From Burkholderiales bacterium (lineage in GTDB: Bacteria > Pseudomonadota > Gammaproteobacteria > Burkholderiales > Burkholderiaceae_E), in contig JAPLQE010000092.1 of the NCBI GenBank assembly GCA_026399835.1, positions 2,882 to 66,881 on the forward strand: a stretch of 64,000 nt of DNA, written 5' to 3'. Below, one piece after another: positions 13,653 through 37,161 of this stretch; position 1 is the first letter of the stretch, and each line of letters begins with the position of its first letter. Position numbers and translations under genes: made by a program. Below the pieces are notes generated by a model. It worked only from the letters and a program-made list of their open reading frames with translations. It did not search any database and was not told the origin of the DNA.

Positions 13653-13783
13653 GGGGGTGTCTCCGGCAGGGGGCGGGGATCGTCGGCGCGAGGCCTGGCA
13701 GGGTGCCGTCGGCTGCGTCCGGTGCGCGTGCGTGCGCGCATCCCGTCGGCGCGATCTTCGACGATCCGGCGCCGGAAGGCTAA

Positions 13784-13805
13784 TTGACGTTGACGTCAAC
13801 GTCAA
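13784..13805. promoter_or_regulatory. Perfect 22-bp palindrome TTGACGTTGACGTCAACGTCAA
   Basis: The sequence is an exact inverted repeat, 132 bp upstream of the icmF start, in the divergent intergenic region toward the His-rich gene and the receptor. It looks like a dimeric operator. Confidence 0.4.
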
Positions 13806-14184
13806 CGACGCCGCCATGGCGTCCGAGGCGCGGCCGGGGTGCCGCCGCCTTGGGCTCACCGTCGAATCCCGCCTTCGCGTCCGATCGCCGGGCCGCCTAT
13901 CCTCGTGGCCGGCCTTGGCGCCGATGACCCGTCGATCGACGCGTCGTGCCGTCGGACGGATCGGTCATGAGCGGGAGTCTCCGACGGGGGCGGGACCCTC
14001 TCGCAGGCCGCCGATCCGGAGCCGACACGGGCGGATCCGCCGAACGATCCGCCGCGGCAGTGCCGAACGGCACCGTCCGTACCGCGATGTCACGAGCCCG
14101 ACCGCTCGACCCCGCAGCATTCCGAGACAGCGATCCGACACCGTGACCCCTGCCCTCCGCCCGCGTCGACCGACCCGCCCCGCG

Positions 14185-19656: not shown

Positions 19657-20260
19657 AGCCCCAGGAATCGAGCCGTGCGGGGATGGCGTTGAAGGCCATC
19701 GAGAAACGGCGAGCGCCTGGGTTCGGCGGCACCGCGTGGAGCAGGTAGCTCGGGAACAGCACCATGTCGCCGGGCTCCGGCAGCGGCCCGATCCACTTCT
19801 CGGCGTTGTACGGTCCGGTGACCACGCCCGCATGGTCGTTGCGGAACGAGAAGTCGTGGCCACCGGGCGACTTCATGAACATCGTCCGCGCCTCGGGGTG
19901 CGGGCGGCTCAGGTAGAGCACGCCGGACACGAAGCTGTTGGCGTGGTTGTGCATCGCCTGGCGCCCGCCGGTCTCCAGGACGTTGACCCACATCTCCTTG
20001 AGCGACCAGCCCAGGCGCTCGCCGAACAGCAGCGCACCGAACTCGGCGATCCGAGGGGTGACCGCCGCCGCCACGATGCCCAGCAGCGGACTGTCGTCCG
20101 GCCGGAGCATCGCGGTATGCGACAGCTGGTCCGAGCCGTTGTTCATGCGGTCGGCCTGCGCCGCGAAATGGTCGACGAGCCCGTCGACGAGCGCGGGCGC
20201 GAGCACGCCCGCCACGCGCATGACGGGCGTCGGGAAGAGGCCGGTGACCTCTACGGTCAT
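19634..20260 (-). CDS. TIGR02466-type putative 2OG-Fe(II) oxygenase-like protein
   Basis: 208 aa. WVNVLETGGRQAMHNHANSFVSGVLYL and GDMVLFPSYLLHAVPPN give the HxH/N...H cupin-like pattern I associate with TIGR02466/2OG-FeII_Oxy_5. Confidence 0.75.
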   Translation of the reverse strand: MTVEVTGLFPTPVMRVAGVLAPALVDGLVDHFAAQADRMNNGSDQLSHTAMLRPDDSPLLGIVAAAVTPRIAEFGALLFGERLGWSLKEMWVNVLETGGRQAMHNHANSFVSGVLYLSRPHPEARTMFMKSPGGHDFSFRNDHAGVVTGPYNAEKWIGPLPEPGDMVLFPSYLLHAVPPNPGARRFSMAFNAIPARLDSWGYALGFSG

Positions 20261-20264
20261 CGGC

Positions 20265-20867
20265 TCAGGCGCGGCGGCGGCGGCGGGCGATGACGCCTCC
20301 GAGTCCGAGGGCCATGAACACGTACGCGGCGGGCTCGGGCACCGCGGTGATCGCGACGTTGTCGAACACGGCAGCGTTCGCGGCGCCCCCGAAGGTCACC
20401 GACTGCGCGGTCCCGGCGAAGGTGGCCGAAGCCGTGCCGAAGTTGCAGTAGGCGCTGTCGATGCAGCTGTTCGAAGCGGCGTTGTTCGCCAGGTCGATGC
20501 TCGCGAGCAACGTGCCCGTGCCGTTCAGCCCGCTCCAGACCTGGACGGCGCCGGTGAGCGCGCTGCTCGACGAGTAGGAGAAGCTCACCGCGTCGGTGAA
20601 GTAGACGCCGGTCGCGGCGTTCATCGCGGCATCGCTGCCGGCGGCGAACATCACGCCGAGCGGCGACGGCGCGTTCGAGAAGTACGGACCGAGCTCGTCG
20701 TTGGCCAGGCCCTGCGCGTCGGCGCCGAACAGCACGCCGAGGCCGGCGTAGGTCGAGCCGATCGAGGCGAACGAGGGCGCGGTCTCGAAATCGATGACGG
20801 TGGTCTGGGCGAACGCGGGAACGGCGGACAGCAGCGCGAGCGCGGCGACGATGGGGCGGAGTTTCAT
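20265..20867 (-). CDS. PEP-CTERM sorting-domain secreted protein
   Basis: 200 aa. It has a signal peptide (ALALLSAVPAFAQ) and the C-terminal tag VPEPAAYVFMALGLGGVIARRRRRA, which is PEP + TM + a basic tail. Confidence 0.85.
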   Translation of the reverse strand: MKLRPIVAALALLSAVPAFAQTTVIDFETAPSFASIGSTYAGLGVLFGADAQGLANDELGPYFSNAPSPLGVMFAAGSDAAMNAATGVYFTDAVSFSYSSSSALTGAVQVWSGLNGTGTLLASIDLANNAASNSCIDSAYCNFGTASATFAGTAQSVTFGGAANAAVFDNVAITAVPEPAAYVFMALGLGGVIARRRRRA

Positions 20868-21052
20868 GAGGGACCTCGAAGGTGGTCGGTTGGCGGGGGC
20901 CTCCGACGTTGGACGCAGTGTAGGCAGCGAAGTGCGAACGGCGGATGACGCGACGATGGAGCCGATCGGCGCACTGGACCGTTCGGCGGGTCATCACCCG
21001 TTCACGGCCCCAGCCCAGACTGCGATGCATCGAGACACTACGGAACGATGCG

Positions 21053-21496
21053 ATGCACCCTCCCCGCCGCCGCCTCGTGCTCGGCGTCGGCGCCGCGATC
21101 GGCGCCTCGTTCGCCGGGTCGCCGGCCCGCGCCTGCGACTTCGCCCTCCCCCACCTGCGCGTCACTCATCCCTGGACGAGGGCCACGCCGGCGAAGGCCG
21201 GCTCCGCCGTGCTCTGCACGCGGTTCGACGAGGTCACCGAGGCGGACCGCCTGATCGGCGTGGTGACGCCGGTCGCGACCGGCTTCGAGATCGTCGGGCC
21301 GCGCGGTGCGCGTGCCTCGTCTCTCGAAATCCCCGAGGGGCGCGAGACCGTCCTCGGCGAGGAAGGCCTGCGGTTGCGGCTCGTCGGCCTCAGCCAAGGG
21401 CTGATGATCGCCCGCACCTACCCCCTCACCTTCGTCTTCGAGCGCGGCGGCGAACTGATCGCCGCGCTGAACGTCGATTACCTGCCGGTCGGCTGA
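21053..21496 (+). CDS. PCu(A)C/DUF461-like periplasmic protein lacking the usual His/Met copper ligands
   Basis: From ATG 21053 the product is 147 aa with a twin-arginine leader (PPRRRLVLGVGA). THPWTRAT, DRLIGVVTPVA, LEIPEG and PLTFVFERGGE align with the PCuAC pattern. Where EIHxM and HLMLxGL are expected, the sequence reads FEIVGP and LRLRLVGL. Confidence 0.55.
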   Translation: MHPPRRRLVLGVGAAIGASFAGSPARACDFALPHLRVTHPWTRATPAKAGSAVLCTRFDEVTEADRLIGVVTPVATGFEIVGPRGARASSLEIPEGRETVLGEEGLRLRLVGLSQGLMIARTYPLTFVFERGGELIAALNVDYLPVG

Positions 21497-21549
21497 GCCG
21501 CACGGATCCATCGCATCAGTCCCCACGACTCACTCCCCGAGGAGCCCAC

Positions 21550-23817
21550 ATGATTCACCCCCCGTTCAACAAGCACCGGATCGCGCTGCTCGCGATCAGC
21601 GCGGCCACGATGGCAGCGGCCTCCGGCGGCGCCCTGGCCGCGAAGACCCCCGGCACGTACGTCGCCGGCGACTTCCACAATCACACCACCTGCTCCGACG
21701 GCTCGATCTCGATGCAGAGGCTGGTGAAGAAGTCGACCGACAAGGCCGACACTCCCTGGGGCCTCGACTGGTTCGTTCAGGCGGGCCACGGCGGCAACGG
21801 CAACCGCAACTGCTCGCTGGTCGAGGACGCGTCGCTGTCGACGCCGGCCTATCCGTTCGTCTCCGGCCAGGGTCCGCAGACCACCTGGGCGACGAGCGGC
21901 GTCGCGCGCAAGGGCAACGCGGCCGGCACCGCCAACATGTGGCGCTGGCAGTCGATCCAGGAGATCCAGTACCCGCTGATGGAGTACCTGGCGGTCCTCA
22001 ACAACCTGCCGGTCTTCATGGGCCTGGAGTCGGTGGTCGCCGGCCACGAGCACTCGTCGATGGCGGTCATCACCGGCCAGTTGCCGGCCTCGACCGACAC
22101 CGCGGTGCTGCCGACGACCCCCGGCGGTCAGAGCTTCGCGACGGCGCTCGGCAATGCGACCGCCCTCGCGCAGTGGTCGTACTGCTTCGATCGCGGTGAC
22201 ACCGACACCAGCCGCGGCAACACCACGACCACGAGCGGCATCGGCAACAACTGGAGCTGCGATTTCTCGGGCGGCGTCAACTCGGGCAGCGCCGACTGGA
22301 ATGCCACCGCGCAGAAGCTGATGATCACCGGCAGCGGCGTGGGTAGCGCCATCGGCACGCGCGGTCACGCCAAGACGGTCGACGCGGTGAAGTGGATGGC
22401 CGCCCTGCATGCGAACGGCAGCTACTACGTGCCGGCCCACCTCGAGCGCGCCGGCCCGTTCAACCCGGACGGCAACAACGGCTTCAACGTCGAGCACCTG
22501 CGCAACCTCAACAACGCGGCACCGCGCGTCGCCTTCGGCATGGAGACGCAGCCGGGCCACGGCGCGTCGGCCGAGCGCGGCGAATACCGTCCGCTGCGCA
22601 ACGGCTTCACCGGCAGCAGCACCAACGTCGACTCGGTCGGCGGCACCACCTACGGCGGCACCGGCGTCTACGGCGCCTGGGTCGGCGGCGTCTGGGACGC
22701 GCTGCTCGGCGAAGGCCGCAACTTCTGGTTCTTCGCGAGCTCCGACTGGCACAACCGCGGCAGCTTCGGCGCCGACGACCGCCGCTCCACGCAGGACTTC
22801 TATCCCGGCGAGTACCAGCGCAACTACACGATGGTCCGCAATGGCGCCGACAAGCTGCGGCCGCAGACCATCGTCGACGGCCTGCGCACCGGCAACAACT
22901 GGGCGGCCAGCGGCCAGCTGATCGATCGCCTCGCGTTCGTGGCCTGCGCGTCCTACCCCGGTCCGGGCGCGCGGACCAACGCGGCGGTCGAGAACCTCGC
23001 GGTCCGCGCCGCGTCGAACAACACCGACATCGACGTCGCCGGCTGCGTGACTATGGGCGAGAAGCTCGTCGTGCGTCCCGGCGCAGACATCGTCGTCGCG
23101 GTCGTCGTCCGCGACCCGGCCGGCACCAACTACGCCCCGTACTCGTTCCCGAACCCGTCGCTCGCGCAGATCGGCGCGAACGTGCCGATGAACGCCCCGG
23201 TGCTCGATCACATCGACGTGATCCGCGGCTCGGTGACCGGCTTCAAGACACCGGGCTCGGCGGACTACTCGGGCGAGTGGCCGCGCAACACCGGCTGGCT
23301 GCGGACCGACGGCTCGACCGCCGACCTGTCGGCCGTGCCGGCCGCCGCGAAGAACTCCACCGCGGCGATCCTGCGGACGTTCAACGGCAACGGCGCGAAC
23401 CCGTGGAGCACGGCCACCTCGACGGTGGACGGCACGACCTTCCTGAAGATGAGCTTCCGCATCCCGGCGGTCCAGGCCTCGCAGTACGTGCGCCTCCGCG
23501 GCACGAACCTGCCGGCCGCGGTGCCGTACGAGACCGACGCGCAGGGCAACCCGCTGCCCGACTTCTTCACCAACGCCACCACGGTCGCCAACCTTCGGAT
23601 CCCCTGCACCACGGTGGGCACGAACGTCCCGGCGAACACCGGCGTGACCTGGGACCAGAGCATGGGTGCGATCGACGGCTGCCCGAACCACCTCGCGGTG
23701 CAAAACGGCCAGAAGATGGTGTCGTACGACGTCGCGGCCTGGGCCGACCTGTGGTTCTACAGCAATCCGATCTACGTCGAGGTCGGCGGTTCGACGGTGG
23801 TGGCCGGCGTCCGCTGA
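21550..23817 (+). CDS. Large secreted PHP-like (HxH...SDG) metal-dependent phosphoesterase-family protein
   Basis: From ATG 21550 (gaggag upstream) the product is 755 aa. It has a signal peptide (LLAISAATMAAASGGALAA), then GDFHNHTTCSDGS, QAGHGGNG and VVAGHEHSS. The long beta-rich C-terminal part is not recognised. Confidence 0.65.
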   Translation: MIHPPFNKHRIALLAISAATMAAASGGALAAKTPGTYVAGDFHNHTTCSDGSISMQRLVKKSTDKADTPWGLDWFVQAGHGGNGNRNCSLVEDASLSTPAYPFVSGQGPQTTWATSGVARKGNAAGTANMWRWQSIQEIQYPLMEYLAVLNNLPVFMGLESVVAGHEHSSMAVITGQLPASTDTAVLPTTPGGQSFATALGNATALAQWSYCFDRGDTDTSRGNTTTTSGIGNNWSCDFSGGVNSGSADWNATAQKLMITGSGVGSAIGTRGHAKTVDAVKWMAALHANGSYYVPAHLERAGPFNPDGNNGFNVEHLRNLNNAAPRVAFGMETQPGHGASAERGEYRPLRNGFTGSSTNVDSVGGTTYGGTGVYGAWVGGVWDALLGEGRNFWFFASSDWHNRGSFGADDRRSTQDFYPGEYQRNYTMVRNGADKLRPQTIVDGLRTGNNWAASGQLIDRLAFVACASYPGPGARTNAAVENLAVRAASNNTDIDVAGCVTMGEKLVVRPGADIVVAVVVRDPAGTNYAPYSFPNPSLAQIGANVPMNAPVLDHIDVIRGSVTGFKTPGSADYSGEWPRNTGWLRTDGSTADLSAVPAAAKNSTAAILRTFNGNGANPWSTATSTVDGTTFLKMSFRIPAVQASQYVRLRGTNLPAAVPYETDAQGNPLPDFFTNATTVANLRIPCTTVGTNVPANTGVTWDQSMGAIDGCPNHLAVQNGQKMVSYDVAAWADLWFYSNPIYVEVGGSTVVAGVR

Positions 23818-25786: not shown

Positions 25787-26131
25787 TCAGGGCATGCGCT
25801 GCTGGGCGTCGTGCTTCTGCCGGAGGATCCGGCGACTCTCGGTCTGCTGCGCGTCGTGCAGGCGCAGGCGCTCGCGGCGGGTGACCGTGCCATCGGCCTC
25901 CGCGCGGTGCTCCATGCGCTCGATGCGCTGCTGACCGTTCTCGAGCCGCACCGCCTCGCGGGGGGTCACGCTGCCCGAGGCAATGCCCTGGCCGATGCGC
26001 TCCGCCTGGTTCTGCTCGCGCGCATCGACGCGCGGCATCGTGGCCTGCGCGAACGCGGTGACCGACGCAGTGCCGAGCATCGCTGCGAGCAGGAAGGTCC
26101 GGATCTGACTGCGGGTCGGGGTACGGGTCAT
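25787..26131 (-). CDS. Small secreted hypothetical protein with internal repeats
   Basis: From ATG 26131 the product is 114 aa. It has a signal peptide (FLLAAMLGTASVTAFAQA) and two related charged segments (VTPREAVRLENGQQRIERM and VTRRERLRLHDAQQTESRRI). Confidence 0.5.
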   Translation of the reverse strand: MTRTPTRSQIRTFLLAAMLGTASVTAFAQATMPRVDAREQNQAERIGQGIASGSVTPREAVRLENGQQRIERMEHRAEADGTVTRRERLRLHDAQQTESRRILRQKHDAQQRMP

Positions 26132-26287
26132 CGTGGCTGCCTCTCGGAGGGGGGGCGCCGCGGGCGGGAGGCCCGTCGGTCGCACACGTCCAAGGTAGGC
26201 GGCGGGCGCGTCACCCGGGCGGCCCCACCGGTAAGCCGAGTGTCGCGCTGTAACCCGCGACCCCTCGCCTCGCGCGGCCCCGCCCCG

Positions 26288-26330
26288 CAAACGAACGGGG
26301 CGCGCCGCCGGCAACCCGGCGACGCGCCCC
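26288..26330 (-). terminator. Long GC hairpin followed by GUUCGUUUG downstream of the thiolase gene
   Basis: On the minus strand, ggggcgcgtcgccgg-gttg-ccggcggcgcgcccc is followed by gttcgtttg. Confidence 0.4.
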
Positions 26331-26367
26331 GCGAGCACCGGCCCCCTCGGGGCCGAGCCTCGGTCGA

Positions 26368-27546
26368 TCAGAGCCGCTCGAGGATGGTCACGTTCGCCTG
26401 GCCACCGCCCTCGCACATCGTCTGCAGGCCGTAGCGCTTGCCGCGGGTGTGCAGCGCGTAGACCAGCGTGGTCATCAGCTTGGCGCCCGAGCCGCCGAGC
26501 GGGTGGCCCAGCGCGATCGCGCCGCCGTTGACGTTCATGCGGTCGCGGTCGGCGCCGAGCGCCTTGAGCCAGGCCAGCGGCACCGACGCGAAGGCCTCGT
26601 TGACCTCGAACAGGTCGATGTCGTCGATCTTCATGCCGGCCTTCTTCAGCGCCCGCTCGGTCGCCGGCAGCGGCGCCTCGAGCATGATCACCGGATCGTG
26701 GCCGATGAGGGTCAGGTTGTGGATGCGGGCGATCGGCTTGAGGTCGTACTGCTTGCGGGCGCGCTCGCTGACCACCATCAGGCCGGCCGCACCGTCGCAG
26801 ATCTGGCTGGCGTTGGCCGCGGTGATCGCGCCGCCTTCCTGCAGCACCTTGACCGCCGAGATGCCGGCCAGGCTCGCGTCGAAGCGGATGCCTTCGTCGA
26901 TGGTGTGCAGCTCGTCGGCGTTGGAGCCGTCGGCGCGGCGCACCGCGACCGGCACGATCTCGGACGCGAAGGCACCGGCCTTGGTCGCGGCGATCGCGCG
27001 CTCGTGGCTCGACAGCGCGTAGGCGTCGAGGTCCGCCTTGTTCAGGCCGTACTTCTTCACCATCATCTCGGCGCCGATGAACTGGCTGAAGTCCGGGCCG
27101 GGGTACTTGGCGCGGATGCCCGGGCTCATGTAGTGGCCCATGCCGTTCTTGGCGGCGAGGATCGTGGGCGAGCCCATCGGCACGCGGCTCATGCTCTCGA
27201 CGCCGGCGGCGATGACGATGTCCATCGTGCCGGACATCACGGCCTGCGCGGCGAAGTGCACCGCCTGCTGCGACGAGCCGCACTGCCGGTCGACCGAGGT
27301 GCCGGGCACGTGCTCGGGCAGCTTCGAGGCGAGGACCGCGTTGCGCGCGACGTCGGTGGCCTGCTCGCCGATCTGCCCGACGCAGCCCATGATCACGTCC
27401 TCGACGAGCGCCGGGTCGATGCCGCTGCGGTCGACGAGGGCGTCGAGCACCTGGGCGGCGAGGTCGACGGGGTGCCAGCCGGACAGCCGGCCGCCCTTCT
27501 TGCCGCCCGCGGTGCGCGCGGCGGCGACGATGAATGCTTCAGCCAT
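26368..27546 (-). CDS. Acetyl-CoA C-acyltransferase (thiolase)
   Basis: From ATG 27546 the product is 392 aa. It has AFIVAAARTAGG, VDRQCGSSQQAV (active-site Cys), NVNGGAIALGHPLGGSG and CEGGGQANVT. Confidence 0.9.
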   Translation of the reverse strand: MAEAFIVAAARTAGGKKGGRLSGWHPVDLAAQVLDALVDRSGIDPALVEDVIMGCVGQIGEQATDVARNAVLASKLPEHVPGTSVDRQCGSSQQAVHFAAQAVMSGTMDIVIAAGVESMSRVPMGSPTILAAKNGMGHYMSPGIRAKYPGPDFSQFIGAEMMVKKYGLNKADLDAYALSSHERAIAATKAGAFASEIVPVAVRRADGSNADELHTIDEGIRFDASLAGISAVKVLQEGGAITAANASQICDGAAGLMVVSERARKQYDLKPIARIHNLTLIGHDPVIMLEAPLPATERALKKAGMKIDDIDLFEVNEAFASVPLAWLKALGADRDRMNVNGGAIALGHPLGGSGAKLMTTLVYALHTRGKRYGLQTMCEGGGQANVTILERL

Positions 27547-27727
27547 GGATCGGGTCTCCTGTTCCGGTCTGGGGGGAATCGAGACGTCGAGTTTGGCATG
27601 AACCGCCGGGCGTCGCGCGAGGCGGTTCCACCGCGAGCCGGCGCCCCGGGGCGGCCGGCTCCGCCCGCCCGGGGCACACAGGACCGCCCGCCGCAGGCCC
27701 TGGCGCCCCGCTTCAGTCGCCGCCGCC

Positions 27728-30247
27728 TCAGCTCGCGGCAGCCGCCACCGGGAGCGCGGTGGCGCTGGCGCGCCGGGCGCCGAGCGCGCGCACGAACAGC
27801 GCCTGCACGTCCAGCACCTGCACCAGCGCATTGCGCTGCGGCTTGCCCGCCACCGCGGCGAGCTCGCAGTCGAGGATGCCGGTCACGCAGGCTTCGCGGC
27901 CCGCGAGCGGCGCCTCCTGCAGGCGCGCCTGCTCCACCTCGAGCACCGACAGCACGTCGTCGACTCGCAGTCCGATCGCCGGCATGCGCGGATCACGCTC
28001 CGAGCGCAGCACCAGCACCACGCCGTCGCCGTGCCGGGACGGATAGTCCACGCCGAACAGGCGCCGGGCGCAGATCACCTGGATCATCCGCGAGACACCT
28101 TCGGCCTGGACTTCGAGCATGCCCACCGAGTGCGACAGCGAGGACGGCGCGCGCACCAGCCCGCGGTGCGAGACGGCCTGCATCAGCAGGTCCGCCGGCA
28201 GCGCATAGCGGTTGCTGCCGACCTGGAACACGCCGAGCTCGAAGGTCGGCGCACGCGGCCTCGCCGGCGCGACGATCAGCGCCTCCTCGGACAGCGTGCT
28301 GCGCCGCCGATCGTGCGGCCCGAGACGCAGCGCGACCATCGCGCGCACGCCGTTGTCGTAGCCGTCTGCGGTCTTGAACTCCCGGTAGCCGGCGGCCGGC
28401 GACCGGGCGCAGGCCCAGCTCGCCCCGGCATGCTGGACCACCGCGCCGTCGCCCTCGAACTCGATGATGACGCCCGGCGTGAGCTCCGGATCGCTGGAGG
28501 CGACGATGCGCCCGGAGGCATCGATGAAGGCCGCGGCGCCTTTGCGCTCGCCCATCACATCGCGCAGCATCGCACCGAACTCGGCGCGCGAGTCGAAGAT
28601 CACCGCGATGCCGCCGATCAGCATGTTCGTGCCCGGCTCGCGCACGGCGGCGAGATAGACATAGGTGTCGCCCGCGTCGTGGAAGTCGGTGGGACCGAAC
28701 TCGCTGACCGCGTAGCGCTGCGAACCCGACAGCCGCCGCACCGACTCCAGCCAGCCGTCGTCGACCGTGCGGCCGACGAGGCTCGGGTCGGCCTCGGTAC
28801 GCGAAGCACCGCGCACGCGGCCCTCGGCGTCGAACACCACCAGCCGGCTGTACACCGTGTAGAGGCCGTTGACGCGGTCGAGCACCGTGTTGAGCGCGCT
28901 GCTCGACGCCTCGCCCGCCGGCTGCGCGAGTTGCTCGGCGATGGCGGGCGACAGCGCCCACCAGCGGCAGTCATTGGCCCGCTCGTAGAGGTTGCGGTCC
29001 ATGATGTCGGCGGCCAGGCGCGCGAGCTCGGCCGACTGCCGCCGTGTGCGCGCGAGCGAGGTCCGGTACAGGTCGCGCACCGCGATGTTGACGCGCTCGC
29101 GGGTGCGAAAGCCCGCGACGTTCACCTCGTTGAGCACCGCCTTGAGCCGCAGGGCGTCGCCCTGGCCGCCCACGTGCGCCATCAGCTGGCCGTTCCAGAC
29201 GACCCGACGCAGTTCGCGGTTGATCTCGTCGGCGTCTTGCTGGATCTCGGTCAGCTGCGCGCTGTCGAGCGGTACGTCGATGTCGGTCGCATCGTCGCGC
29301 GTGCGGAAGGCGGTCAGCAGCGACACCATCGCCTGCGCCCGCCACTTCGGGCCGAAATAGCCCTGGTAGCCGCGGGTCTCGCAGCCGACGGCCATGTACT
29401 CGCGGCCGGCGAAGGTGGTCAGCACGACGTCGTCGAAGGCGACCGAGGGCAGCAGCGATCCGATCGGCACGTGCGCGACGTCGTTCGAGGCGATCACGCG
29501 ATTGCGGTCGTCGACCAGCACCAGTGCGGTCTGCCCGCGCTCGTCGGCCATGCTCCTGAAGACGCGCGCCATCTCGTCGTGGAACCGGAACACCAGCACC
29601 AGCACGCCGATGGGGCGGCCGTCGGCCTGCACGATGCGGTTCGCGTACAGCAGCGAGGGGGCACCGCCGGCGACCAGGTCGGTCGGCGCGAAGCGCTCGC
29701 GGTAGGTGTGCGAGCCGATGGCCTCGGCGATCAGCGGGTCGGTGCTTCGCTCGAGCGGGGCGTCGTCCGCCAGCCGCGCGAGGACGGTGCCGTCCGGGGC
29801 GAGCAGGATCACGTCCTCGTAGACGGTGTACTTCGACTGGTAGTCGGCGAGCCGCGCCCGCATCGCACCGGCGAGCCCCGCCCGGGTGTCGTCGTCCGCG
29901 GCGCAGAACGCGCGGATCACGTCGTCGGTCGCGAGGAAGCCGACGTCGGCGGTCCGCTCGAACAGGTTTCGCACCAGGATGTCGATCGTGCAGCGCGCCC
30001 GCGCGCCGAGTTCGTCGCCGAGCTCGGCCAGGCTCTCGCCCGCGAGGCTCGACACCAGCCGGACCTGCAGCGCGCCGAAGTGCTCGCGCGTGCGGCTGAG
30101 CGTGGGCAGGATGGAGGCGACTTCCTCGGGGCAGCTGATCGCCGCGGCCGACTCGATCGTCTGCCACACCAGGCCGAGTTCGCGCATGTCACGCTCGGCC
30201 ACCTGCACCTTGCGCATGTGGGGCAACAGTTCTTCGATCGGTGTCAT
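27728..30247 (-). CDS. TM-less protein with two tandem (helical + PAS/Cache-like) sensor modules fused to a C-terminal CheW domain
   Basis: From ATG 30247 the product is 839 aa. An internal repeat is marked by DILVRNLFERTADVGFLATDD (about aa 88) and DIMDRNLYERANDCRWWALSP (about aa 455). Each is followed by beta-rich sensor-like segments (VILLAPDGTVLARL.., LVVFDAEGRVRGAS..). The last ~150 aa (FELGVFQVGSNRYALPADLLMQAV...VQVLDVQALF) look like CheW. I see no hydrophobic helices. Confidence 0.75.
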   Translation of the reverse strand: MTPIEELLPHMRKVQVAERDMRELGLVWQTIESAAAISCPEEVASILPTLSRTREHFGALQVRLVSSLAGESLAELGDELGARARCTIDILVRNLFERTADVGFLATDDVIRAFCAADDDTRAGLAGAMRARLADYQSKYTVYEDVILLAPDGTVLARLADDAPLERSTDPLIAEAIGSHTYRERFAPTDLVAGGAPSLLYANRIVQADGRPIGVLVLVFRFHDEMARVFRSMADERGQTALVLVDDRNRVIASNDVAHVPIGSLLPSVAFDDVVLTTFAGREYMAVGCETRGYQGYFGPKWRAQAMVSLLTAFRTRDDATDIDVPLDSAQLTEIQQDADEINRELRRVVWNGQLMAHVGGQGDALRLKAVLNEVNVAGFRTRERVNIAVRDLYRTSLARTRRQSAELARLAADIMDRNLYERANDCRWWALSPAIAEQLAQPAGEASSSALNTVLDRVNGLYTVYSRLVVFDAEGRVRGASRTEADPSLVGRTVDDGWLESVRRLSGSQRYAVSEFGPTDFHDAGDTYVYLAAVREPGTNMLIGGIAVIFDSRAEFGAMLRDVMGERKGAAAFIDASGRIVASSDPELTPGVIIEFEGDGAVVQHAGASWACARSPAAGYREFKTADGYDNGVRAMVALRLGPHDRRRSTLSEEALIVAPARPRAPTFELGVFQVGSNRYALPADLLMQAVSHRGLVRAPSSLSHSVGMLEVQAEGVSRMIQVICARRLFGVDYPSRHGDGVVLVLRSERDPRMPAIGLRVDDVLSVLEVEQARLQEAPLAGREACVTGILDCELAAVAGKPQRNALVQVLDVQALFVRALGARRASATALPVAAAAS

Positions 30248-30501
30248 CCGGGCCTCTGACTCACGGTTCCACCTGAGTCTAGGCAGGGATTCGCTCGGCG
30301 AAACATCGAACTGCGGCACCTTAACCGGCCTGTTCGGCGCCGCACCAAGGACAGGCACGATCCGCGCATCCCGGTCTCAATCGTGCACCACGGCGTGGCC
30401 GGTTCGAGCCCGGAGGGGTCGCGCGCGGCGTGGCCGACGGATCGGCCCGACGAGCGGCGCGACGAACGGCGCGACCGACGTCGCACCGTCCGCGCAGACC
30501 G

Positions 30502-30930
30502 TCAGCCGCGTACCACGAAGCCCATCAGCGCGGCGACCACGTAGGCGGCGAGGACGCCGAACCAGAAGTTCTTCGCCAGCGCGGCGCGCGCTGCGTACTC
30601 GGCCTGCTCGGCGGCGCGCTGCGCCGGTTCCAGGCCGCGGACCCAGGCCGAGAACGAGCGCGACTCGAACATCGCGAACAGCGGGTAGCCGAGCGCGACG
30701 AACCCGCCCCACAGCGCCGTGGCCAGCGGCCAGTCGCGGGGCCAGGACGGCGCGGCGAAGCCGCCGAACACGTAGGCCGCGAGCGGGAACAGACCGACGA
30801 ACAGGTGGACGATCAGCGCGGCGACGTTGAACTCGGCGCTGCCGAACTGCCAGCCGCGACGATCGGACCAGCGCACGCGGGCCGCGGGGCGGGCGGCGGC
30901 GCCCGGAAGGGAGATCGACGATTGGTTCAT
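30502..30930 (-). CDS. Hypothetical integral membrane protein
   Basis: From ATG 30930 the product is 142 aa with three or four hydrophobic segments (AALIVHLFVGLFPLAAYVFGGF, LATALWGGFVALGYPLFAMF, FWFGVLAAYVVAALMGFVV). Confidence 0.5.
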   Translation of the reverse strand: MNQSSISLPGAAARPAARVRWSDRRGWQFGSAEFNVAALIVHLFVGLFPLAAYVFGGFAAPSWPRDWPLATALWGGFVALGYPLFAMFESRSFSAWVRGLEPAQRAAEQAEYAARAALAKNFWFGVLAAYVVAALMGFVVRG

Positions 30931-31052
30931 GCGTTCACCTCGGTTTGGGGGGCGAGGCCACTGTGCGCCGTGCCGCCCTTCGCCCGGCCCATAGGCGAGC
31001 GTGGCAGTCGGGCTTGGCGGACCGGACGTCGGTGTTTCGAGACGTCCGACGC

Positions 31053-31430
31053 TCAGATCGGCAGCGCCGTCTCGTACTTCACCTCGCGCAGCACGACGTT
31101 CGTGCGGATGCTGGCCACCCCCGGAATCCTGAACACCACCTCGTGCAGGAACCGGTCGTAGGCCTTCATGTCGGGCACCACGACCTTGATCAGGTAGTCG
31201 GCCTCGCCGGTGATGCCGTGGCACTCGATGATCTCGGGGCAGGCCCGCACCTGCCGTTCGAACCCGTCGACCACGCCCTCGACATGCCGCTCGAGCGACA
31301 CGTTGGCCAGCACGCACGCGTGCAGCCCGAGCTTCTCGCGGTCCAGCAGCGCGGCCCAGCGCCGGATCACACCGCGCTCCTGGAGCTCGCGGATCCGCCT
31401 GCAGACCGTCATCGCCCGGCTGATGAAAGC
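31053..31430 (-). pseudogene. Lrp/AsnC-family transcriptional regulator, 5'-truncated
   Basis: The C-terminal RAM/effector domain is intact (ANVSLERHVEGVVDGFERQVRACPEIIECHGITGEADYLIKVVVPDMKAYDRFLHEVVFRIPGVASIRTNVVLREVKYETALPI). Only the last helix of the HTH (CRRIRELQERGVI) remains. There is no start codon, and the upstream DNA is an IS91 remnant. Confidence 0.7.
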
Positions 31431-31439
31431 GCTCACGCG

Positions 31440-31800
31440 CCGGGCGTGCTGGTCGAGGACATGGGCCAGACCTGGCTGGCCGAGCCGCCTGGCGATGGCG
31501 AGGAGGCGCGCAGTTTGCGGCCGCTGCAGGCGGCGGCTATCACGTATCGCATCGCCTTCGGCCCGCGCGCAGGACGCAAGGTGCTGACCCTGAGAGGGGC
31601 GATCCCGCGCGAGGCCGCAGCGCGCCAGCGGCTGTGCGCCGACATCGACGGGTTCAGCCTTCACGCCGCGGTGCGGATCGAAGCCCACGATCGCAGGCGG
31701 CTGGAGCGGTTGTGTCGATACATCACGCGACAGGTCAGGTGGAGCTGAGGCTCGAGACACCGTGGCGACCCGGATCACGCACGGTGATGCTTCACGGCCT
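31440..31800 (+). mobile_element. Internal remnant of an IS91-family (Y2 rolling-circle) transposase gene
   Basis: The plus-strand frames read GVLVEDMGQTWLAEPPGDGEEARSLRPLQAAAITYRIAFGPRAGRKVLTLRGAIPREAAARQRLCADIDGFSLHAAVRIEAHDRRRLERLCRYITR. After a frameshift they read GQVELRLETPWRPGSRTVML. This is a close match to the conserved ..TYRIAxGPRAGxKV..GFSLHAAVR..LExLCRYITRP..LKTPWRDGT.. block. Both ends are missing. Confidence 0.65.
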
Positions 31801-31915
31801 CGGTCAGGTGAGCCTCGCGTACGACCGCCGCGTGGCGACGATCGTGCTCGAGGCCTTGTCGGCGGCCGAAGGCGGCCGGACCGACCGCACCGCCCGAGGT
31901 GGCGCGATCCTCGGC

Positions 31916-32314
31916 TCAGGCGCCGGTGTCGATCGACCACCGGGTGCCGCAGCCCCGGCAGGAAGCGACGAACTGAAGAGGGCGACCCAGGCTGCCGGAC
32001 TCGTTCTCAGGCACCGGCCGGAAGCCGTCGCGCTGGCAGGCGGGACACACTGCCTGGCTTCCGACATGCTCGGCCACCATCATCATCTGCGCGTAGCGCC
32101 GCAGGCAGACCCAGCCCAGACAGCCTCCGCCCACCACCAGGAGGCCGTCGTACAGCAGCTCGAACCGAGACGTCGGCTCGGACAGGAGCTCGAGTCCCGC
32201 CACGACCACGATGAGCGCGAGCACGAGCGTCACCAGATAGAGGTGACTCTCGACGAGCTGGCGCTCGTACCACTTCCGATAGCCGTATTTGCGGATGCGT
32301 TCGACCGTGCTCAT
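31916..32314 (-). CDS. Hypothetical membrane protein with C-terminal CxxC...CxxC zinc-ribbon
   Basis: From ATG 32314 the product is 132 aa. It has two hydrophobic helices (HLYLVTLVLALIVVVAGLELL, LLVVGGGCLGWVCL), then CPACQ...CRGCG. Confidence 0.45.
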   Translation of the reverse strand: MSTVERIRKYGYRKWYERQLVESHLYLVTLVLALIVVVAGLELLSEPTSRFELLYDGLLVVGGGCLGWVCLRRYAQMMMVAEHVGSQAVCPACQRDGFRPVPENESGSLGRPLQFVASCRGCGTRWSIDTGA

Positions 32315-32412
32315 CGCGCCCCCTCGCCGCTTCTGCGCGTGACCCGTCAGTCCGGGATGATGCGCCGGATGACGAACGGATCGCAACCGGCCCACTGCAG
32401 GGCGCTACGCGC

Positions 32413-33057
32413 TCAGTGGCCTGCGGTCCAGCGCCCGGCCCGTGCCAATGCGGTCAGCGCCTTCGGCTGCCGCTCGGCGGGCCGCACCTGCGCCAGCAGC
32501 CTCAGCAACAGCATCGCGGTGGCGAACGCGTCGGCGCTCGCATGGTGACGCTGAGCGACGTCGATCGAGAAGTGGGCGAGCCATTCGTCGAGGGCATGGG
32601 CCCGGACGCCCGGATTCAACGCCGGCGCGAGACCCGCCAGGTCGATCCAGCGTGCATCGAGTCGGCGCCCGAGCGACTCGCGAACCGTCCGAGCGAGGAA
32701 CGCGCGGTCGAAGTCCGCATGGAACGCGACCAACGTGGCCCCACCGGCGTAGTCGAGGAACGCGGCACAGGCCTCGCGCGGCTCGACCCCGCCCCGCTGG
32801 GCGGCCTCGCCGATCCGATGGATCAGGATGTTGTCGCGGCCGCTGGTACGCGCGGGCCGCAGCACCTGCTCGAAACTGTCGGACGCGACGATCCGGCCCC
32901 CCACCACCGCCACCGCCCCGATCGCGATCAGCGCGTCGGAACCGGGATCGAGACCGGTGGTCTCGCAGTCGACCACCACGAACCGCGATCCGCCGTCCTG
33001 TCGCTGCGCCGGGATCGGATCGCGTCTCGGACCGAGCAGGCGCCGCAGCCAGTGCAT
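32413..33057 (-). CDS. DEDDh 3'-5' exonuclease (DnaQ/epsilon-like)
   Basis: From ATG 33057 the product is 214 aa. It has FVVVDCETTGLDP (ExoI), LVAFHADFDRAFL (ExoII) and QRHHASADAFATA (ExoIII, H-x4-D). Confidence 0.8.
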   Translation of the reverse strand: MHWLRRLLGPRRDPIPAQRQDGGSRFVVVDCETTGLDPGSDALIAIGAVAVVGGRIVASDSFEQVLRPARTSGRDNILIHRIGEAAQRGGVEPREACAAFLDYAGGATLVAFHADFDRAFLARTVRESLGRRLDARWIDLAGLAPALNPGVRAHALDEWLAHFSIDVAQRHHASADAFATAMLLLRLLAQVRPAERQPKALTALARAGRWTAGH

Positions 33058-33062
33058 CGACG

Positions 33063-34937
33063 TCAGCCGGGGTAATCGAGCGCGAGTCGGCGCTGCAGCA
33101 TGCGCGCCTGCTGGAACGCTTCCTTGAGGATCCTGCGATCGAGCGCCGACAGGGAATGGACGTCGATCAGGTTCGGATTCGGCATGGTCTCGGCCGCCTT
33201 TTCCTGCTGTACACGCAGGCGCAGGCTCTGCAGGAACTGGAAGGCGTCGACCCACGACCGGGTCTCGCGCTCCGGTAGCACGCCTGCCTCGGCGAGCGCT
33301 TCGAGCCGCTCGGCCGTCCCGGTCTGGGTGACGCCATTCGCGAGCGCAAGCAACCGGGCGCCGTCGACGAAGGGCGAGGTGCCGTGGCGCTTCAAATCGA
33401 TCTGCGCCGACTCGGACCCGAACAGTTGCCCGATCAGCCCTCCCGTCCAGGCGGGCGGGGGCCCGTTGCGCAGGGCGTTGTCGCTCATCTGCTTGAGGAA
33501 TCGGACGTTGGCGGCGGCGCGTCGCGTGACCCGGTCACGCAGCGTGACGGCGAGCGAGGCGTCACCCGCCAGCGCCCGGAAGTCGAAGAAGATGTTGGCC
33601 GCGAGAAGGCTCTGAGGATCGCCGCGATCGATCCAACCGTTGAACAGCGCCTCCCATTCCGACGCCTCCAGGCACCATCGCGCGTTGCCCGCCATGATGC
33701 CGCCCCGGCACAGCGGATAGCCGCACCTGTCGAGCGCATGGTTCACCGTATCGGCGAACGCCCTCATCCGCTCGCGCTCGGCCGGCCCGGCACCGTCGGG
33801 CAACACCAGGCCGTTGTCCTGATCGGTCGCGATGGTCTGCTCCTCGCGGCCCTCGCTGCCGAGTGCCAGCCAACATGTCCGTTCGATCGCGACACGGGCC
33901 TGCGCCGCCGTCAGGTCGATCACGCGGCGGGTCAGCTGGTCGTTCAGGCGGCTGATCAGGCGGGTCACGAACCCGGCCGCCACGCCCTGGGCGACCAGTG
34001 CGCCCGACCACGCACGGATGTCGGCCGCGGCGTCGGCGAGGGCGTCGACCGATGCGGCGAACCCGATTGCATCGCCGATCGCACGCATGCTCTGGCGCTG
34101 AAGCACGAAGAGGTCGCGCTCGGTCACCACCCCCGCCAGACGACCGTCGCGCACCACCGGCACGTGCCGGATGCCGCGGCTTGCCATCAGCAGCATCGCC
34201 TCGGCGGCGGACGCCTGCGCATCGAGCGTGACCAGCGGCGTGGTCATCACCGAGGCGATCGGCGTGTCCAGTGACAGGCCCGGCAGGACGACGCGTCCGA
34301 TCACGTCCTGTCGCGTGAAGATACCCTCGGCGTCGCCGACGATCACCGAGCCCACGCGCTCGCGCTCCATGGTCTCGAACACGACGCGCAGGCTGACCTC
34401 TCCCGCCACCGAGATCGGCTCGCGGCGCACGAGCGCCGACAGGGGCCCCATCATCGAGCGGCCCTGGGCCGCCTGGCGGGCGTAGCTCGCCTGAACCGCC
34501 TGCCGGGACAGGTCGAGCATCGCGCCGAGGCGACGCTTGCAGAAGTCCAGGAACACCTCGCTGCGTTGAATCAGCACGTCGAAATCGGCACGCGACAGCA
34601 CCCAGCAGAACACGTCGCCGGCGGCCGTATAGCGGGCCGAGACCGCACGCCCGGCAAGCAGCGCACCCACCGGGAAGGGCTCGCCCTGTGTCAGCTGCAG
34701 ACCCGGTTCGGCGGCCTGCTGATCGTCGGGCCGCCGCCCGGCCACCACACCGTCGCGCACGATCCAGCAGGCGTCGGGTGTTCCCGCCTCCGGCGCGATG
34801 ATCACCTCGCCCGGAGCGAAATAGGCGAGTTCGACGCGTCCGGCGATGAACTCGAGATCCTCGCCGCGCATCGTGGAGAACGGCGGATGGACTTCGAGCG
34901 CGGCACGCACTGCGGCGACGATGGTCGGCGAACTCAT
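33063..34937 (-). CDS. cNMP-binding + tandem CBS + DUF294 nucleotidyltransferase + DUF294_C protein
   Basis: From ATG 34937 the product is 624 aa. The N-terminal half has a cyclic-nucleotide-binding-like region (FAPGEVIIAPEAGTPDACWIVRDGVV) and CBS-like segments (RHVPVVRDGRLAGVVTERDL). It is followed by WLALGSEGREEQTIATDQDNGLV (nucleotidyltransferase G[S]-x-DxD) and a helical C-terminus. Confidence 0.85.
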   Translation of the reverse strand: MSSPTIVAAVRAALEVHPPFSTMRGEDLEFIAGRVELAYFAPGEVIIAPEAGTPDACWIVRDGVVAGRRPDDQQAAEPGLQLTQGEPFPVGALLAGRAVSARYTAAGDVFCWVLSRADFDVLIQRSEVFLDFCKRRLGAMLDLSRQAVQASYARQAAQGRSMMGPLSALVRREPISVAGEVSLRVVFETMERERVGSVIVGDAEGIFTRQDVIGRVVLPGLSLDTPIASVMTTPLVTLDAQASAAEAMLLMASRGIRHVPVVRDGRLAGVVTERDLFVLQRQSMRAIGDAIGFAASVDALADAAADIRAWSGALVAQGVAAGFVTRLISRLNDQLTRRVIDLTAAQARVAIERTCWLALGSEGREEQTIATDQDNGLVLPDGAGPAERERMRAFADTVNHALDRCGYPLCRGGIMAGNARWCLEASEWEALFNGWIDRGDPQSLLAANIFFDFRALAGDASLAVTLRDRVTRRAAANVRFLKQMSDNALRNGPPPAWTGGLIGQLFGSESAQIDLKRHGTSPFVDGARLLALANGVTQTGTAERLEALAEAGVLPERETRSWVDAFQFLQSLRLRVQQEKAAETMPNPNLIDVHSLSALDRRILKEAFQQARMLQRRLALDYPG

Positions 34938-35015
34938 GCGGGGTATGTAAGGTGCGTTGGGCAGGGGGGCGCGCTCGACATCGCTTCGAGTGCAACGGTA
35001 CCGAATTCGCCGGCG

Positions 35016-35041
35016 AAAAAAAACCGGGCCTGGGGCCCGGT
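35016..35041 (-). terminator. Rho-independent terminator after actP
   Basis: On the minus strand, ACCGGGCC-CCA-GGCCCGGU is followed by UUUUUUUU, 50 nt after the actP stop. Confidence 0.75.
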
Positions 35042-35091
35042 CTGTTTCCACGCTGCCGGCGCGCCGTGCGGGCGCGCCGGCAACTCGGCGG

Positions 35092-37161
35092 TCAGGCCGC
35101 CTTGAGGTTCGGATACCGGACGTTCTGGACCATGTCCTGAGTCTCTTTCGAGGGCGCCGGGGTGACCAGACTGACGAGAATGATCACCAGGAATCCCAAG
35201 GGGACACCGAACACGCCAGCCGAGATCGGCAGGATGTCCCACCACAGGTCCGGGGCAACCGAGCGGGCGGTTCCGAAGAACACCTCGCGCAGCCACGGGT
35301 GGGTCGAGATCATGTACCAGAAGGTCACGCCCACACCGGCGAGCATGCCCAGCGACGCGGCAATGCCCGTGGTGCGCTTCCAGAACACACCGAGCACCAG
35401 TGCCGGGAAGAAGCCGGCTGCCGCCAGCGAGAAGGCCGCAGACACCAGGAACAGGATGTCGGCGATCTTCAGAGAGGCCACGTACGCGGCGAGTGCGGCG
35501 ACCACCAGCAACAGGATCTTGGAGAGCAGCACGCGGCGGGACGTGGGCGCGTTCGGATCGATCATCTTGTAGTAGAGATCGTGCGACAGCGCGTTGGCGA
35601 TGGTCAGCAGCAAGCCGTCCGCCGTGGACAGCGCCGCCGCCAGACCGCCTGCGGCCACGAGGCCCGACACCACGTACGGCAGGCCCGCGATCTCCGGCGT
35701 GGCCAGCACGACGATGTCACCGCCGATCACGATCTCCGCCAACTGCACGATGCCGTCCCGGTTGACGTCGGTGATCGACAGCAACGATGGATCGACCTTC
35801 GCCCAAGCCTGTGCCCACGCTGGAAGGCTGGTGAACGCCGTGCCCACCACGTCGTTGTACATCACGAACTTGACCAGTACGGCGAGGGCCGGGGCCGTGA
35901 AGTACAGCAGGAAGATGAAGAACAGCGACCAGGTCACCGAGCTTCTGGCTTCCTTGACCGATGGCGTCGTGTAGTACCGCATCAGGATGTGAGGCAGTGC
36001 AGCGGTGCCCACCATCAGGCAGAAGACCAGGGCCAGGAAGTTCCTGCGGGCGATGTCCCGGGCCTTCTCGTCCTTGCCTGCAAACGCTTCTCCGTGCCGG
36101 GCCGGCGGATTGGCGCGACCGGCGGCTGCCCGGTCACGCGTCCATTGGGCCGTGGCCGCGGCCTGGTCCTTCGGCCAACGGCCCAACGCGTCCTCCGCCG
36201 CCTTGATCTTGCCCGCATCCTCGTTGGCGGCCTTCAGATCGGCCAGGTTCTTCTCCAGCCTCGCCTTGCCGTCGGTGTACGCCTTGGCCGGGTCCTTCAG
36301 GGCCTCGGTCGCCGCGGCTGCACGATCACGGAAGATCTGTCGGACCTCCTTCTCCTTCGGATCGTCGATCAGCTTCTGCTCGAGCGCAGTGACCTTCTCG
36401 AGCTGGCTGCCGTAGACGACCTGGGGCACCGGGATACCGGTCTGCTTCACCGACAGCCACACCACCGGGATCAGGTAGGCGATGATCAGGATGATGTACT
36501 GGGCGACCTGCGTCCAGGTGACCGCCTTCATGCCGCCGAGGAACGAGCAGACCAGGATGCCGGCCAGCCCGAGGAACACGCCCACCTGGAAGTCCACGCC
36601 GGTGAGCCGGGTGGTGATCAGGCCAACCCCGTAGATCTGCGCGACCACGTAGGTGAACGAAACCAGGATGGCGATCAGGATGCCGATGAACCGGGGAATG
36701 TGGCCGCCGTATCGCGCGCCCAGGAAGTCGGGGATGGTGAATTGCCCGAACTTCCTCAGATAGGGCGCAAGAAGCAGCGCCACCAGCACGTATCCACCGG
36801 TCCATCCCATGATGAACGCCAGGCCGTTGTAGCCGGACAGGTACAGCGTGCCGGCCATGCCGATGAACGACGCGGCCGACATCCAGTCGGCGCCGGTGGC
36901 CATGCCATTGAACATCGCCGGAACGCGGCGACCGGCCACGTAGTACTCCGAGGCGTCATTGGTCCGGCTCATCACGCCGATGCCCGCGTACAGCAGGATC
37001 GTCGCGACGAGGAACACGTAGCCCATCGTCTGGCGGGCCATGCCCATCTGCTCGAGGATCGCGAGTGCGGCCACGAACAGGAAGAACCCGCCGGTGTAGA
37101 ACGCGTAGACCTTCGTGAGCTGCGCCTTGAAGGCCTTCTGAGACTGCACGGCAGCACTCAT
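35092..37161 (-). CDS. actP: Cation/acetate symporter ActP (SSF family)
   Basis: 689 aa and polytopic. It shows the typical ActP architecture, including a long charged cytoplasmic insert (~aa 260-370), and has a 4-bp overlap with the upstream DUF485 gene. Confidence 0.9.
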   Translation of the reverse strand: MSAAVQSQKAFKAQLTKVYAFYTGGFFLFVAALAILEQMGMARQTMGYVFLVATILLYAGIGVMSRTNDASEYYVAGRRVPAMFNGMATGADWMSAASFIGMAGTLYLSGYNGLAFIMGWTGGYVLVALLLAPYLRKFGQFTIPDFLGARYGGHIPRFIGILIAILVSFTYVVAQIYGVGLITTRLTGVDFQVGVFLGLAGILVCSFLGGMKAVTWTQVAQYIILIIAYLIPVVWLSVKQTGIPVPQVVYGSQLEKVTALEQKLIDDPKEKEVRQIFRDRAAAATEALKDPAKAYTDGKARLEKNLADLKAANEDAGKIKAAEDALGRWPKDQAAATAQWTRDRAAAGRANPPARHGEAFAGKDEKARDIARRNFLALVFCLMVGTAALPHILMRYYTTPSVKEARSSVTWSLFFIFLLYFTAPALAVLVKFVMYNDVVGTAFTSLPAWAQAWAKVDPSLLSITDVNRDGIVQLAEIVIGGDIVVLATPEIAGLPYVVSGLVAAGGLAAALSTADGLLLTIANALSHDLYYKMIDPNAPTSRRVLLSKILLLVVAALAAYVASLKIADILFLVSAAFSLAAAGFFPALVLGVFWKRTTGIAASLGMLAGVGVTFWYMISTHPWLREVFFGTARSVAPDLWWDILPISAGVFGVPLGFLVIILVSLVTPAPSKETQDMVQNVRYPNLKAA

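Follow-up and report, generated by a model that had tools for sequence, protein, structure and literature searches.

The stretch of DNA analysed in this work (the window) comprises 64,000 nucleotides (nt) of contig JAPLQE010000092.1 (positions 2,882 to 66,881) from a Burkholderiales bacterium (GenBank assembly GCA_026399835.1). It carries, at 27728-30247 on the minus strand, a complete gene for a soluble protein of 839 amino acids (aa) in which two dCache-type modules stand in tandem and are followed by a CheW-like domain. The gene was delimited from its open reading frame (ORF), from a start codon fixed by homologues, from its Pfam domains and from an AlphaFold2 model built on 50 homologues (predicted local distance difference test, pLDDT, 87; predicted template modelling score, pTM, 0.79). 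It is referred to below as the sensor gene, and the members of its family with and without the CheW-like domain as the fused and CheW-less forms. A prediction made earlier from the sequence alone (the original prediction) had placed one ORF at these positions; this ORF is a single real gene, and its strand has to be corrected to minus.

The sensor gene and its product

The ORF runs from the ATG at 30247 to the stop codon at 27728-27730 and contains 839 codons besides the stop. An alternative in-frame GTG start at 30358 would lengthen the product by 37 residues. The 839-aa product was accepted because 50 homologues (824-883 aa) align over their whole length when the ATG at 30247 is taken as the start, and because an AGAGG motif lies 6 nt upstream of that codon. 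The full-length alignments also rule out a wrong start and a fusion of two genes, the latter having been named in the original prediction as a ground for giving it up. The GC3 (G+C content at third codon positions) of the ORF is 0.93, as expected for a real gene, and the G+C content of the window is 72%.

The protein is cytoplasmic. No membrane helix was found in the 839-aa product by a 19-residue Kyte-Doolittle scan. The highest value of the scan was 1.35, located in a predicted beta strand, in line with the earlier statement that hydrophobic helices are absent. The N-terminus of the protein is charged and helical.

Domain architecture and predicted structure

The Pfam search matched dCache_1 (PF02743) with 57.3 bits against a cut-off of 45 (E = 2e-15) in two stretches, the best of which covers aa 100-257 in the first module (module A), while the second lies in the second module (module B). 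CheW (PF01584) was matched at aa 673-819 with 39.3 bits against a cut-off of 23.5 (E = 6e-10), so the C-terminus passed the comparison with CheW profiles on which the original prediction had staked itself. The NCBIfam search of the 839-aa protein gave no match, and membership in a known curated family was rejected on that ground. The single-sequence search of PDB sequences returned only chance coiled-coil matches.

The AlphaFold2 model shows, in order, N-terminal helices, module A, a helical connector, module B, a short linker of low conservation and an all-beta domain at aa 668-822. All of these parts are encoded on the minus strand. The N-terminal helical segment (aa 1-46, 30110-30247) has model helices at aa 3-10, 12-38 and 40-43 and contains the conserved residues L24 and W28. 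Sensor module A (aa 47-312, 29312-30109), assigned from Pfam, AlphaFold2 and Foldseek, consists of a 60-residue helix and two five-stranded PAS-like units, one distal and one proximal. Motif A, DILVRNLFERTAD (aa 89-101, 29945-29983), lies at the end of the long helix. The inter-module segment (aa 313-361, 29165-29311) is modelled as a loop and a helix (aa 330-359) and contains the conserved residues W351, N352 and G353. Sensor module B (aa 362-645, 28313-29164), also recognised by Pfam, is laid out like module A in the model. Motif B, DIMDRNLYERAND (aa 414-426, 28970-29008), was found by the same regular expression as motif A and runs into a near-invariant CRWWAL. The divergent CheW-like domain (aa 668-822, 27782-28246) was assigned from Pfam, Foldseek and profile matches to PDB sequences.

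Judged from these repeated features, module B is a duplicate of module A, and an internal duplication gave the two tandem dCache-type modules. BLASTP of aa 1-345 against aa 346-690 gave an alignment with E = 4e-9 and 27% identity over 218 aa. The original prediction had already proposed a duplication, which both BLASTP and the AlphaFold2 model bear out, with a module of about 360 aa; the helix motifs at aa 89 and aa 414 give a repeat period of about 325 aa instead.

Foldseek searches of the PDB matched each module to periplasmic dCache sensors, namely DctB (3by9, E = 4e-9), CtaA, Tlp3, Mlp37 and PctA, with E-values of 4e-9 to 1e-6 and a sequence identity of only 9-17%. Both marks of dCache_1 were therefore found, that is a profile score above the cut-off and a long helix with distal and proximal PAS-like units. 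The extracytoplasmic site between two transmembrane helices that is typical of dCache_1 was absent, as the protein has no hydrophobic segment. No MCPsignal match was obtained in Pfam and no helical hairpin follows module B in the AlphaFold2 model. There was likewise no Response_reg match in Pfam, and the protein ends 17 residues past the CheW-like fold. Three claims of the original prediction are thus upheld by Pfam, AlphaFold2 and, for the first two, Foldseek: Cache-like beta-rich modules, a C-terminal CheW-like domain and the lack of the signalling hairpin of methyl-accepting chemotaxis proteins (MCPs).

The CheW-like domain

CheW (PF01584) is the coupling protein between chemoreceptors and their kinase, and it is generally poorly conserved. 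In the AlphaFold2 model aa 668-812 are all-beta, with pLDDT mostly 82-93, and form the SH3-like two-subdomain fold of CheW. Foldseek matched the domain to the CheW structures 2ch4_Y, 6s1k_C and 2qdl with target template modelling scores of 0.72-0.78. A search of PDB sequences with the family profile returned CheW chains only (2qdl, E = 1e-5; 2ho9, E = 3e-3). The profile of the C-terminal domain of the family scored 81 bits against Escherichia coli CheW and 30 bits against the P5 domain of CheA, which makes the domain CheW-type, though divergent.

Residues were compared with E. coli CheW, whose reference sequence was verified against PDB entry 2ho9, in 74 representatives of the family. The fold glycines are kept (G57 in 72/74 and G99 in 67/74). 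The position of V36 is hydrophobic, with V or I in 66/74, and that of I39 is mostly Ala. Glu is found at the position of E38 in 53 of the 74. In the window protein Gln stands at both of these positions, E38 and R62, and the R62 hairpin is lengthened by an insertion of 4 aa.

Distribution of the family

The architecture is widespread, not rare, and is already present in databases under a CheW label. In a protein collection clustered at 90% identity more than 3500 matches were found, and the full-length ones listed are 52-88% identical to the query. They come from Ideonella, Piscinibacter, Rhizobacter, Pseudorhodoferax and many metagenome-assembled genomes (MAGs), and bear the label 'chemotaxis protein CheW'. 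When one genome per species was scanned, at least 595 stretches were found to encode the protein; the best 80 of them belong mainly to Burkholderiales, Rhodocyclales, Methylophilaceae and Thiobacillus, and some to Geobacter and Nevskia. The relatives are mostly Betaproteobacteria, and the nearest ones among the matches listed (89-95% identity) are MAGs of uncultured Burkholderiales. Herbaspirillum rhizosphaerae UMS-37 has two paralogues of the fused form on different contigs (L041 and L063).

Searched exhaustively with HMMER, the sensor half alone gave 824 clusters (50% identity) at E <= 1e-3, of which 314 reached E <= 1e-30. Among the best 150 representatives (50% identity) the CheW-like domain is present in 112 and absent in about 24, and the rest are fragments. 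No kinase, GGDEF, MCP or other output domain was found on the double sensor in these 150.

The CheW-less form is a genuine gene within long contigs and is common in Desulfovibrionales. Its products stop right after the last strand of module B (...GYREYK..D.Y.N.V...). A hidden CheW behind one such gene (L083) was considered and rejected, as the 160-aa ORF that follows is unlike the CheW-like domain and has no Pfam match. Many tandem-dCache proteins of about 682 aa from Desulfovibrionales (P0305, P0312, P0313, P0316, P0322-P0325 and others) have no Pfam CheW match either, and NCBI or UniRef still name them 'chemotaxis protein CheW'. This name looks like a carry-over from the fused betaproteobacterial homologues. 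The database labels are accordingly misleading for many CheW-less homologues.

Conservation across the family

Conservation was measured on an alignment of 110 full-length representatives clustered at 50% identity. The mean pairwise identity is 43% for the sensor helices, 37% for the sensor beta units and 22% for the CheW-like domain. Columns that are at least 85% conserved number 118, and 115 of them lie outside the CheW-like domain, which speaks for a single ligand or partner that is conserved from order to order. The conserved stretches are the helix motifs (D89-D108 and D417-L432), GYQGY..W at aa 293-302 and GYRE at aa 620-623. Motif A alone contains nine residues that are at least 85% conserved (D89, R93, N94, L95, E97, R98, T99, A100 and D101). 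The PAS-like units also hold conserved residues (Y136, K139, Y140, Y143, E184, Y201, GYQGY and GYREYK).

Cys427 (codon 28967-28969, minus strand), in NDCRWWAL, is at least 85% conserved and lies inside the most conserved stretch of the protein. C39, C86, C115 and C726 are invariant too among closer relatives. A redox or metal sensitivity of the protein is a possibility that these cysteines raise.

Gene neighbourhoods across the family

Two independent sets of loci were compared, a genome set of 77 non-redundant fused-form loci and a metagenomic set of 54 fused and 39 CheW-less loci. All-against-all clustering of the flanking ORFs of the 77 genome loci gave no universal or family-wide neighbour. 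The commonest immediate neighbour by Pfam is a GGDEF-EAL protein, found upstream in 12/72 and downstream in 3/70 loci. Local hidden Markov model searches found 16-18 adjacent GGDEF(-EAL) genes among the 77 genome loci against 2-4 in 837 kb of farther flank. Counted as separate juxtapositions, these GGDEF neighbours amount to at least six. In Paucimonas, Rhodoferax, Undibacterium, Pseudoduganella and others, a GAF-GGDEF-EAL gene ends 3-25 nt before the sensor ORF, and the two genes form an apparent operon. In Methylophilaceae a divergent PAS-PAS-GGDEF-EAL gene lies beside the sensor gene, and there are further single cases. The GAF-type and PAS-type GGDEF-EAL groups are 33-37% identical over about 440 aa and differ in their N-terminal domains. 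The catalytic GGDEF and EAL motifs are intact in the neighbour proteins.

MCP genes are scarce in the flanks of the 77 genome loci, where only two were found, at 5 and 7.6 kb. Among the 54 fused metagenomic loci an adjacent GGDEF gene was found in 5 and an adjacent MCP gene (within 1.1 kb) in 5. The 39 CheW-less metagenomic loci have an adjacent GGDEF gene in 7 and an adjacent MCP gene in 6, each count representing about three distinct lineages. The farther metagenomic flank, about 0.95 Mb in all, contains only 8 GGDEF and 4 MCP genes.

In three loci of Maridesulfovibrio type the CheW-less gene is divergent from, and 290-380 nt away from, a GGDEF-TPR gene that is followed by SLT, CheW and CheR-TPR genes. 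The longest of them (L097) continues with a second CheW, CheA-REC and CheB. Loci L097 (1-9614) and L095 (1-5627) carry a Wsp-like che cluster that includes an SLT transglycosylase and a hybrid kinase, and no MCP gene was found in the 10 kb of this cluster that is visible. CheR-TPR fusions are described as marks of chemosensory pathways with alternative cellular functions (PMC3447774).

The neighbourhood of the sensor gene in the window

Downstream of the sensor gene, on the same strand, lies a thiolase gene (ATG at 27545) beyond a GC-rich spacer of 182 nt, as the original prediction had noted. The thiolase gene has its own ribosome-binding site. The spacer (27546-27727, minus strand) contains a GC-rich inverted repeat, gccccgggcgggcgg agcc ggccgccccggggcg, which lacks a T-run and was missed by a simple terminator scan; it may act as a terminator or as a regulatory hairpin. 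Around the gene, simple scans for promoters and terminators gave nothing. A riboswitch or other RNA near the gene was discarded as a candidate, as the Rfam search over 26000-32500 gave nothing at E <= 1.

The thiolase is shared with the closest relative (L003, 95% identity) and is a downstream neighbour in 1/70 loci, the association being limited to the nearest relatives, so a thiolase operon is ruled out as a trait of the family. It is very improbable that the protein senses an acyl-CoA or fatty-acid-related metabolite and controls this gene, which would fit the same-strand position 182 nt downstream and the presence of this neighbour in L003 as well, against which stand the rarity of the arrangement, the lack of a family-wide neighbour, the hairpin and separate ribosome-binding site in between, and the lack of a DNA-binding or enzymatic output domain in the protein.

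Upstream there follow in order a membrane-like ORF without a Pfam match, an Lrp/AsnC regulator, an RNase_T-type exonuclease (32413-33255), a putative nucleotidyltransferase with cNMP-binding, CBS and DUF294 domains (33063-35051) and an SSF-family symporter (35092-37161). The last three form a one-strand run on the minus strand (32413-37161). None of the neighbours on either side has a relation to chemotaxis. A tblastn search of the 64-kb window (E <= 0.01) found no REC, MCP, CheA or other CheW, a search that also missed the CheW-like domain of the sensor gene itself; within that limit the gene is, as first described, an orphan of any che cluster. The only gene for cyclic di-GMP (c-di-GMP) turnover detected in the window encodes a 504-aa GGDEF protein (7604-9118, plus strand), 19 kb from the sensor gene, whose first approximately 330 residues have no Pfam domain.

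Two long ORFs, of 942 aa (17035-19863, minus strand, GC3 0.92) and 1007 aa (20794-23817, plus strand, GC3 0.87), have no Pfam match at the thresholds used and could be novel proteins or shadow ORFs in DNA of such high G+C content. At 10245-13859 (minus strand) lies a 1204-aa fusion of B12-binding, MeaB GTPase and methylmalonyl-CoA-mutase domains with an IcmF-like architecture. In several Rubrivivax loci, separate mutase genes are found downstream of the sensor gene (cluster 29).

Proposed function and its alternatives

The double sensor is joined only to a CheW-like domain or to nothing, so its output must be protein-protein contact. To our knowledge every characterised CheW-like domain (CheW, CheV, CheA-P5 and ParP-AIF) inserts into arrays of MCPs and CheA. 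ParP provides the precedent for a module from outside chemotaxis that is tethered to arrays in such a manner (PMC5706961). Our leading reading, which is held tentatively, is that the protein is a cytoplasmic sensor subunit that docks on chemoreceptor-type complexes. The tandem dCache-type modules would most likely bind an intracellular small molecule, or else hold a conserved partner. Cytoplasmic information would then bias a chemosensory pathway and bypass the ligand-binding domain of the MCP. The gene neighbourhoods suggest that such a pathway would be tied to c-di-GMP turnover, and so to the choice between motility and biofilm, at least as often as to classical flagellar chemotaxis.

The fusion itself, the enrichment of MCP neighbours and the Maridesulfovibrio arrangement together give 'Rosetta-stone' support for a functional link between the sensor, CheW and MCP/CheA. 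The GGDEF/EAL neighbours suggest that the currency further downstream is often c-di-GMP, and the sensor family is probably tied to c-di-GMP control. The original prediction had held that sensing is wired straight into the array adaptor. The architecture on which it was built stands and the function remains the most economical hypothesis, with indirect support from the neighbours, whereas the role of a canonical adaptor is not to be assumed.

Several observations weigh against docking on arrays as the function of the family. No part of the protein is less constrained than the CheW-like domain, which has only 3 columns that are at least 85% conserved. Arg is found at the R62 position in only 14 of the 74 representatives. 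The Glu38-Arg62 salt bridge is invariant in F7-class CheW (PMC3828127), and the window protein, with its two Gln residues, departs from that class. No che genes are encoded together with the gene at the window locus or at the fused-form loci as they would be for a canonical adaptor: there is no CheA or CheW within 10 kb at the 77 genome loci (CheR and CheB were not queried there) and no CheA, CheW or CheR within 8 kb at the 54 fused metagenomic loci. Given the divergent domain and the absence of the E38/R62 pair from the window protein, canonical adaptor function is not to be taken for granted. About 20% of the family, mainly Desulfovibrionales, has no CheW domain, which rules out CheW docking as the core function. 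Cache families are reported to be mainly extracellular (PMC4822843), which makes ligand binding by a cytoplasmic dCache an assumption. The neighbour counts, finally, ignore shared ancestry. Because the CheW-like domain is weakly conserved and missing from one-fifth of the family, and because che genes are lacking near the fused loci, two alternatives have to be kept in view.

The stronger alternative, which we consider unlikely but the most serious competitor, is an array-independent sensor of a cytoplasmic cue that directly regulates GGDEF/EAL proteins, often those next door, with the CheW-like domain serving as a general protein-binding module. It would explain why GGDEF(-EAL) proteins are by far the commonest neighbours of the fused form and why, in several genera, a GAF-GGDEF-EAL gene with intact motifs ends within 3-25 nt of the sensor ORF. 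The divergence of the domain with R62 mostly lost, and the che-free surroundings of the fused loci, within the limits of the query, fit it as well. However, no CheW-like domain is known to work outside MCP/CheA complexes (general knowledge; PMC5706961). MCP neighbours are enriched too, and the CheW-less form adjoins a complete che cluster. About 80% of the loci have no GGDEF/EAL neighbour, and in the window the nearest GGDEF gene is as distant as stated above.

Less probable still is a scaffold or localisation factor similar to ParP, in which a dCache-derived platform without ligand is tethered to arrays by the CheW-like domain. Such high conservation as that of the sensor half is unusual in an input domain, and the near-invariant DIxxRNL[FY]ER..D motifs lie on the long helix and not on the beta-sheet units. 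The logic of ParP, an extra N-terminal domain joined to a CheW-like array-integration domain, is alike, and the existence of CheW-less forms implies that the N-terminal region acts via protein contacts. On the other side, the dCache fold is complete in both modules and matches that of ligand-binding sensors, the PAS-like units too contain aromatic and charged residues that are conserved, and no partner gene is conserved beside the family.

A further reading that we regard as similarly doubtful is a distinct class of soluble receptors that work without MCPs, whose tandem dCache region would sense a universal cytoplasmic metabolite or second messenger and pass the signal directly to CheA-type kinases via the CheW-like domain, or directly to GGDEF/EAL proteins. 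If it were true, it would represent an unrecognised route of input from cell physiology to motility and biofilm formation in Betaproteobacteria and Desulfovibrionales.

Significance

Chemosensory arrays take their input, in the textbook account, through the ligand-binding domains of MCPs. The adaptor variants known to us carry nothing more than an additional receiver domain (CheV) or localisation domain (ParP). If the tentative reading of a docking sensor subunit is true, the family would provide a third route by which information, here cytoplasmic, is brought into chemosensory complexes, in at least 595 species genomes. Independently of that reading, the family is among the few clear cases of an intracellular dCache. 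That GGDEF/EAL and MCP genes repeatedly lie beside its members suggests that metabolism, chemosensory machinery and c-di-GMP are linked. Full-text literature searches found no paper on a Cache-CheW protein, and Cache is nowhere named in a bioRxiv study of CheW-like domains that describes 16 architectures. A protein that is both a CheW-like adaptor with its own sensor and a tandem dCache inside the cell would thus be new, and the family appears unstudied.

Comparison with known systems

The protein shares with CheW (E. coli 2ho9 and 6s1k; Thermotoga maritima 2ch4) the C-terminal 155 aa, with the two-subdomain SH3-like fold and the glycines G57 and G99. It differs in its length, which is five times greater and includes about 665 aa of sensor modules at the N-terminus, in its poorly conserved domain and in never being encoded in a che cluster among the fused loci surveyed. 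It differs from MCPs in having no MCPsignal hairpin.

The periplasmic dCache_1 sensors (DctB 3by9, CtaA 6py3, Tlp3 4xmr and PctA 5t65) have the same long N-terminal helix with distal and proximal PAS-like units. In contrast, the modules of the family are cytoplasmic, arranged in tandem, without flanking membrane helices and only 9-17% identical to these sensors, and they carry family-specific near-invariant helix motifs.

In Wsp-like pathways the output is a diguanylate cyclase, and the family resembles them in recurring beside GGDEF genes and, in the CheW-less form of Maridesulfovibrio, in adjoining such a cluster. No such cluster was found near the window gene or any fused-form locus. WspR has a receiver domain, whereas the neighbouring GGDEF proteins of the family carry GAF or PAS inputs.

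In ParP of Vibrio, a CheW-like AIF domain inserts into arrays via the MCP tip and CheA (PMC5706961). Both ParP and the family tie an N-terminal module from outside chemotaxis to a CheW-like domain. The N-terminus of ParP is a short ParC-binding region and that of the family is a sensor fold; ParP-AIF is reported to be closer to CheA-P5 (PMC5706961), whereas the domain of the family scores best against CheW; and no parC-like context was seen beside the family.

CheV also combines a CheW-like domain with an extra regulatory domain and shows that adaptors can receive input. Its input is a phosphorylated C-terminal REC domain, whereas the window protein lacks REC and has N-terminal folds of the ligand-binding type.

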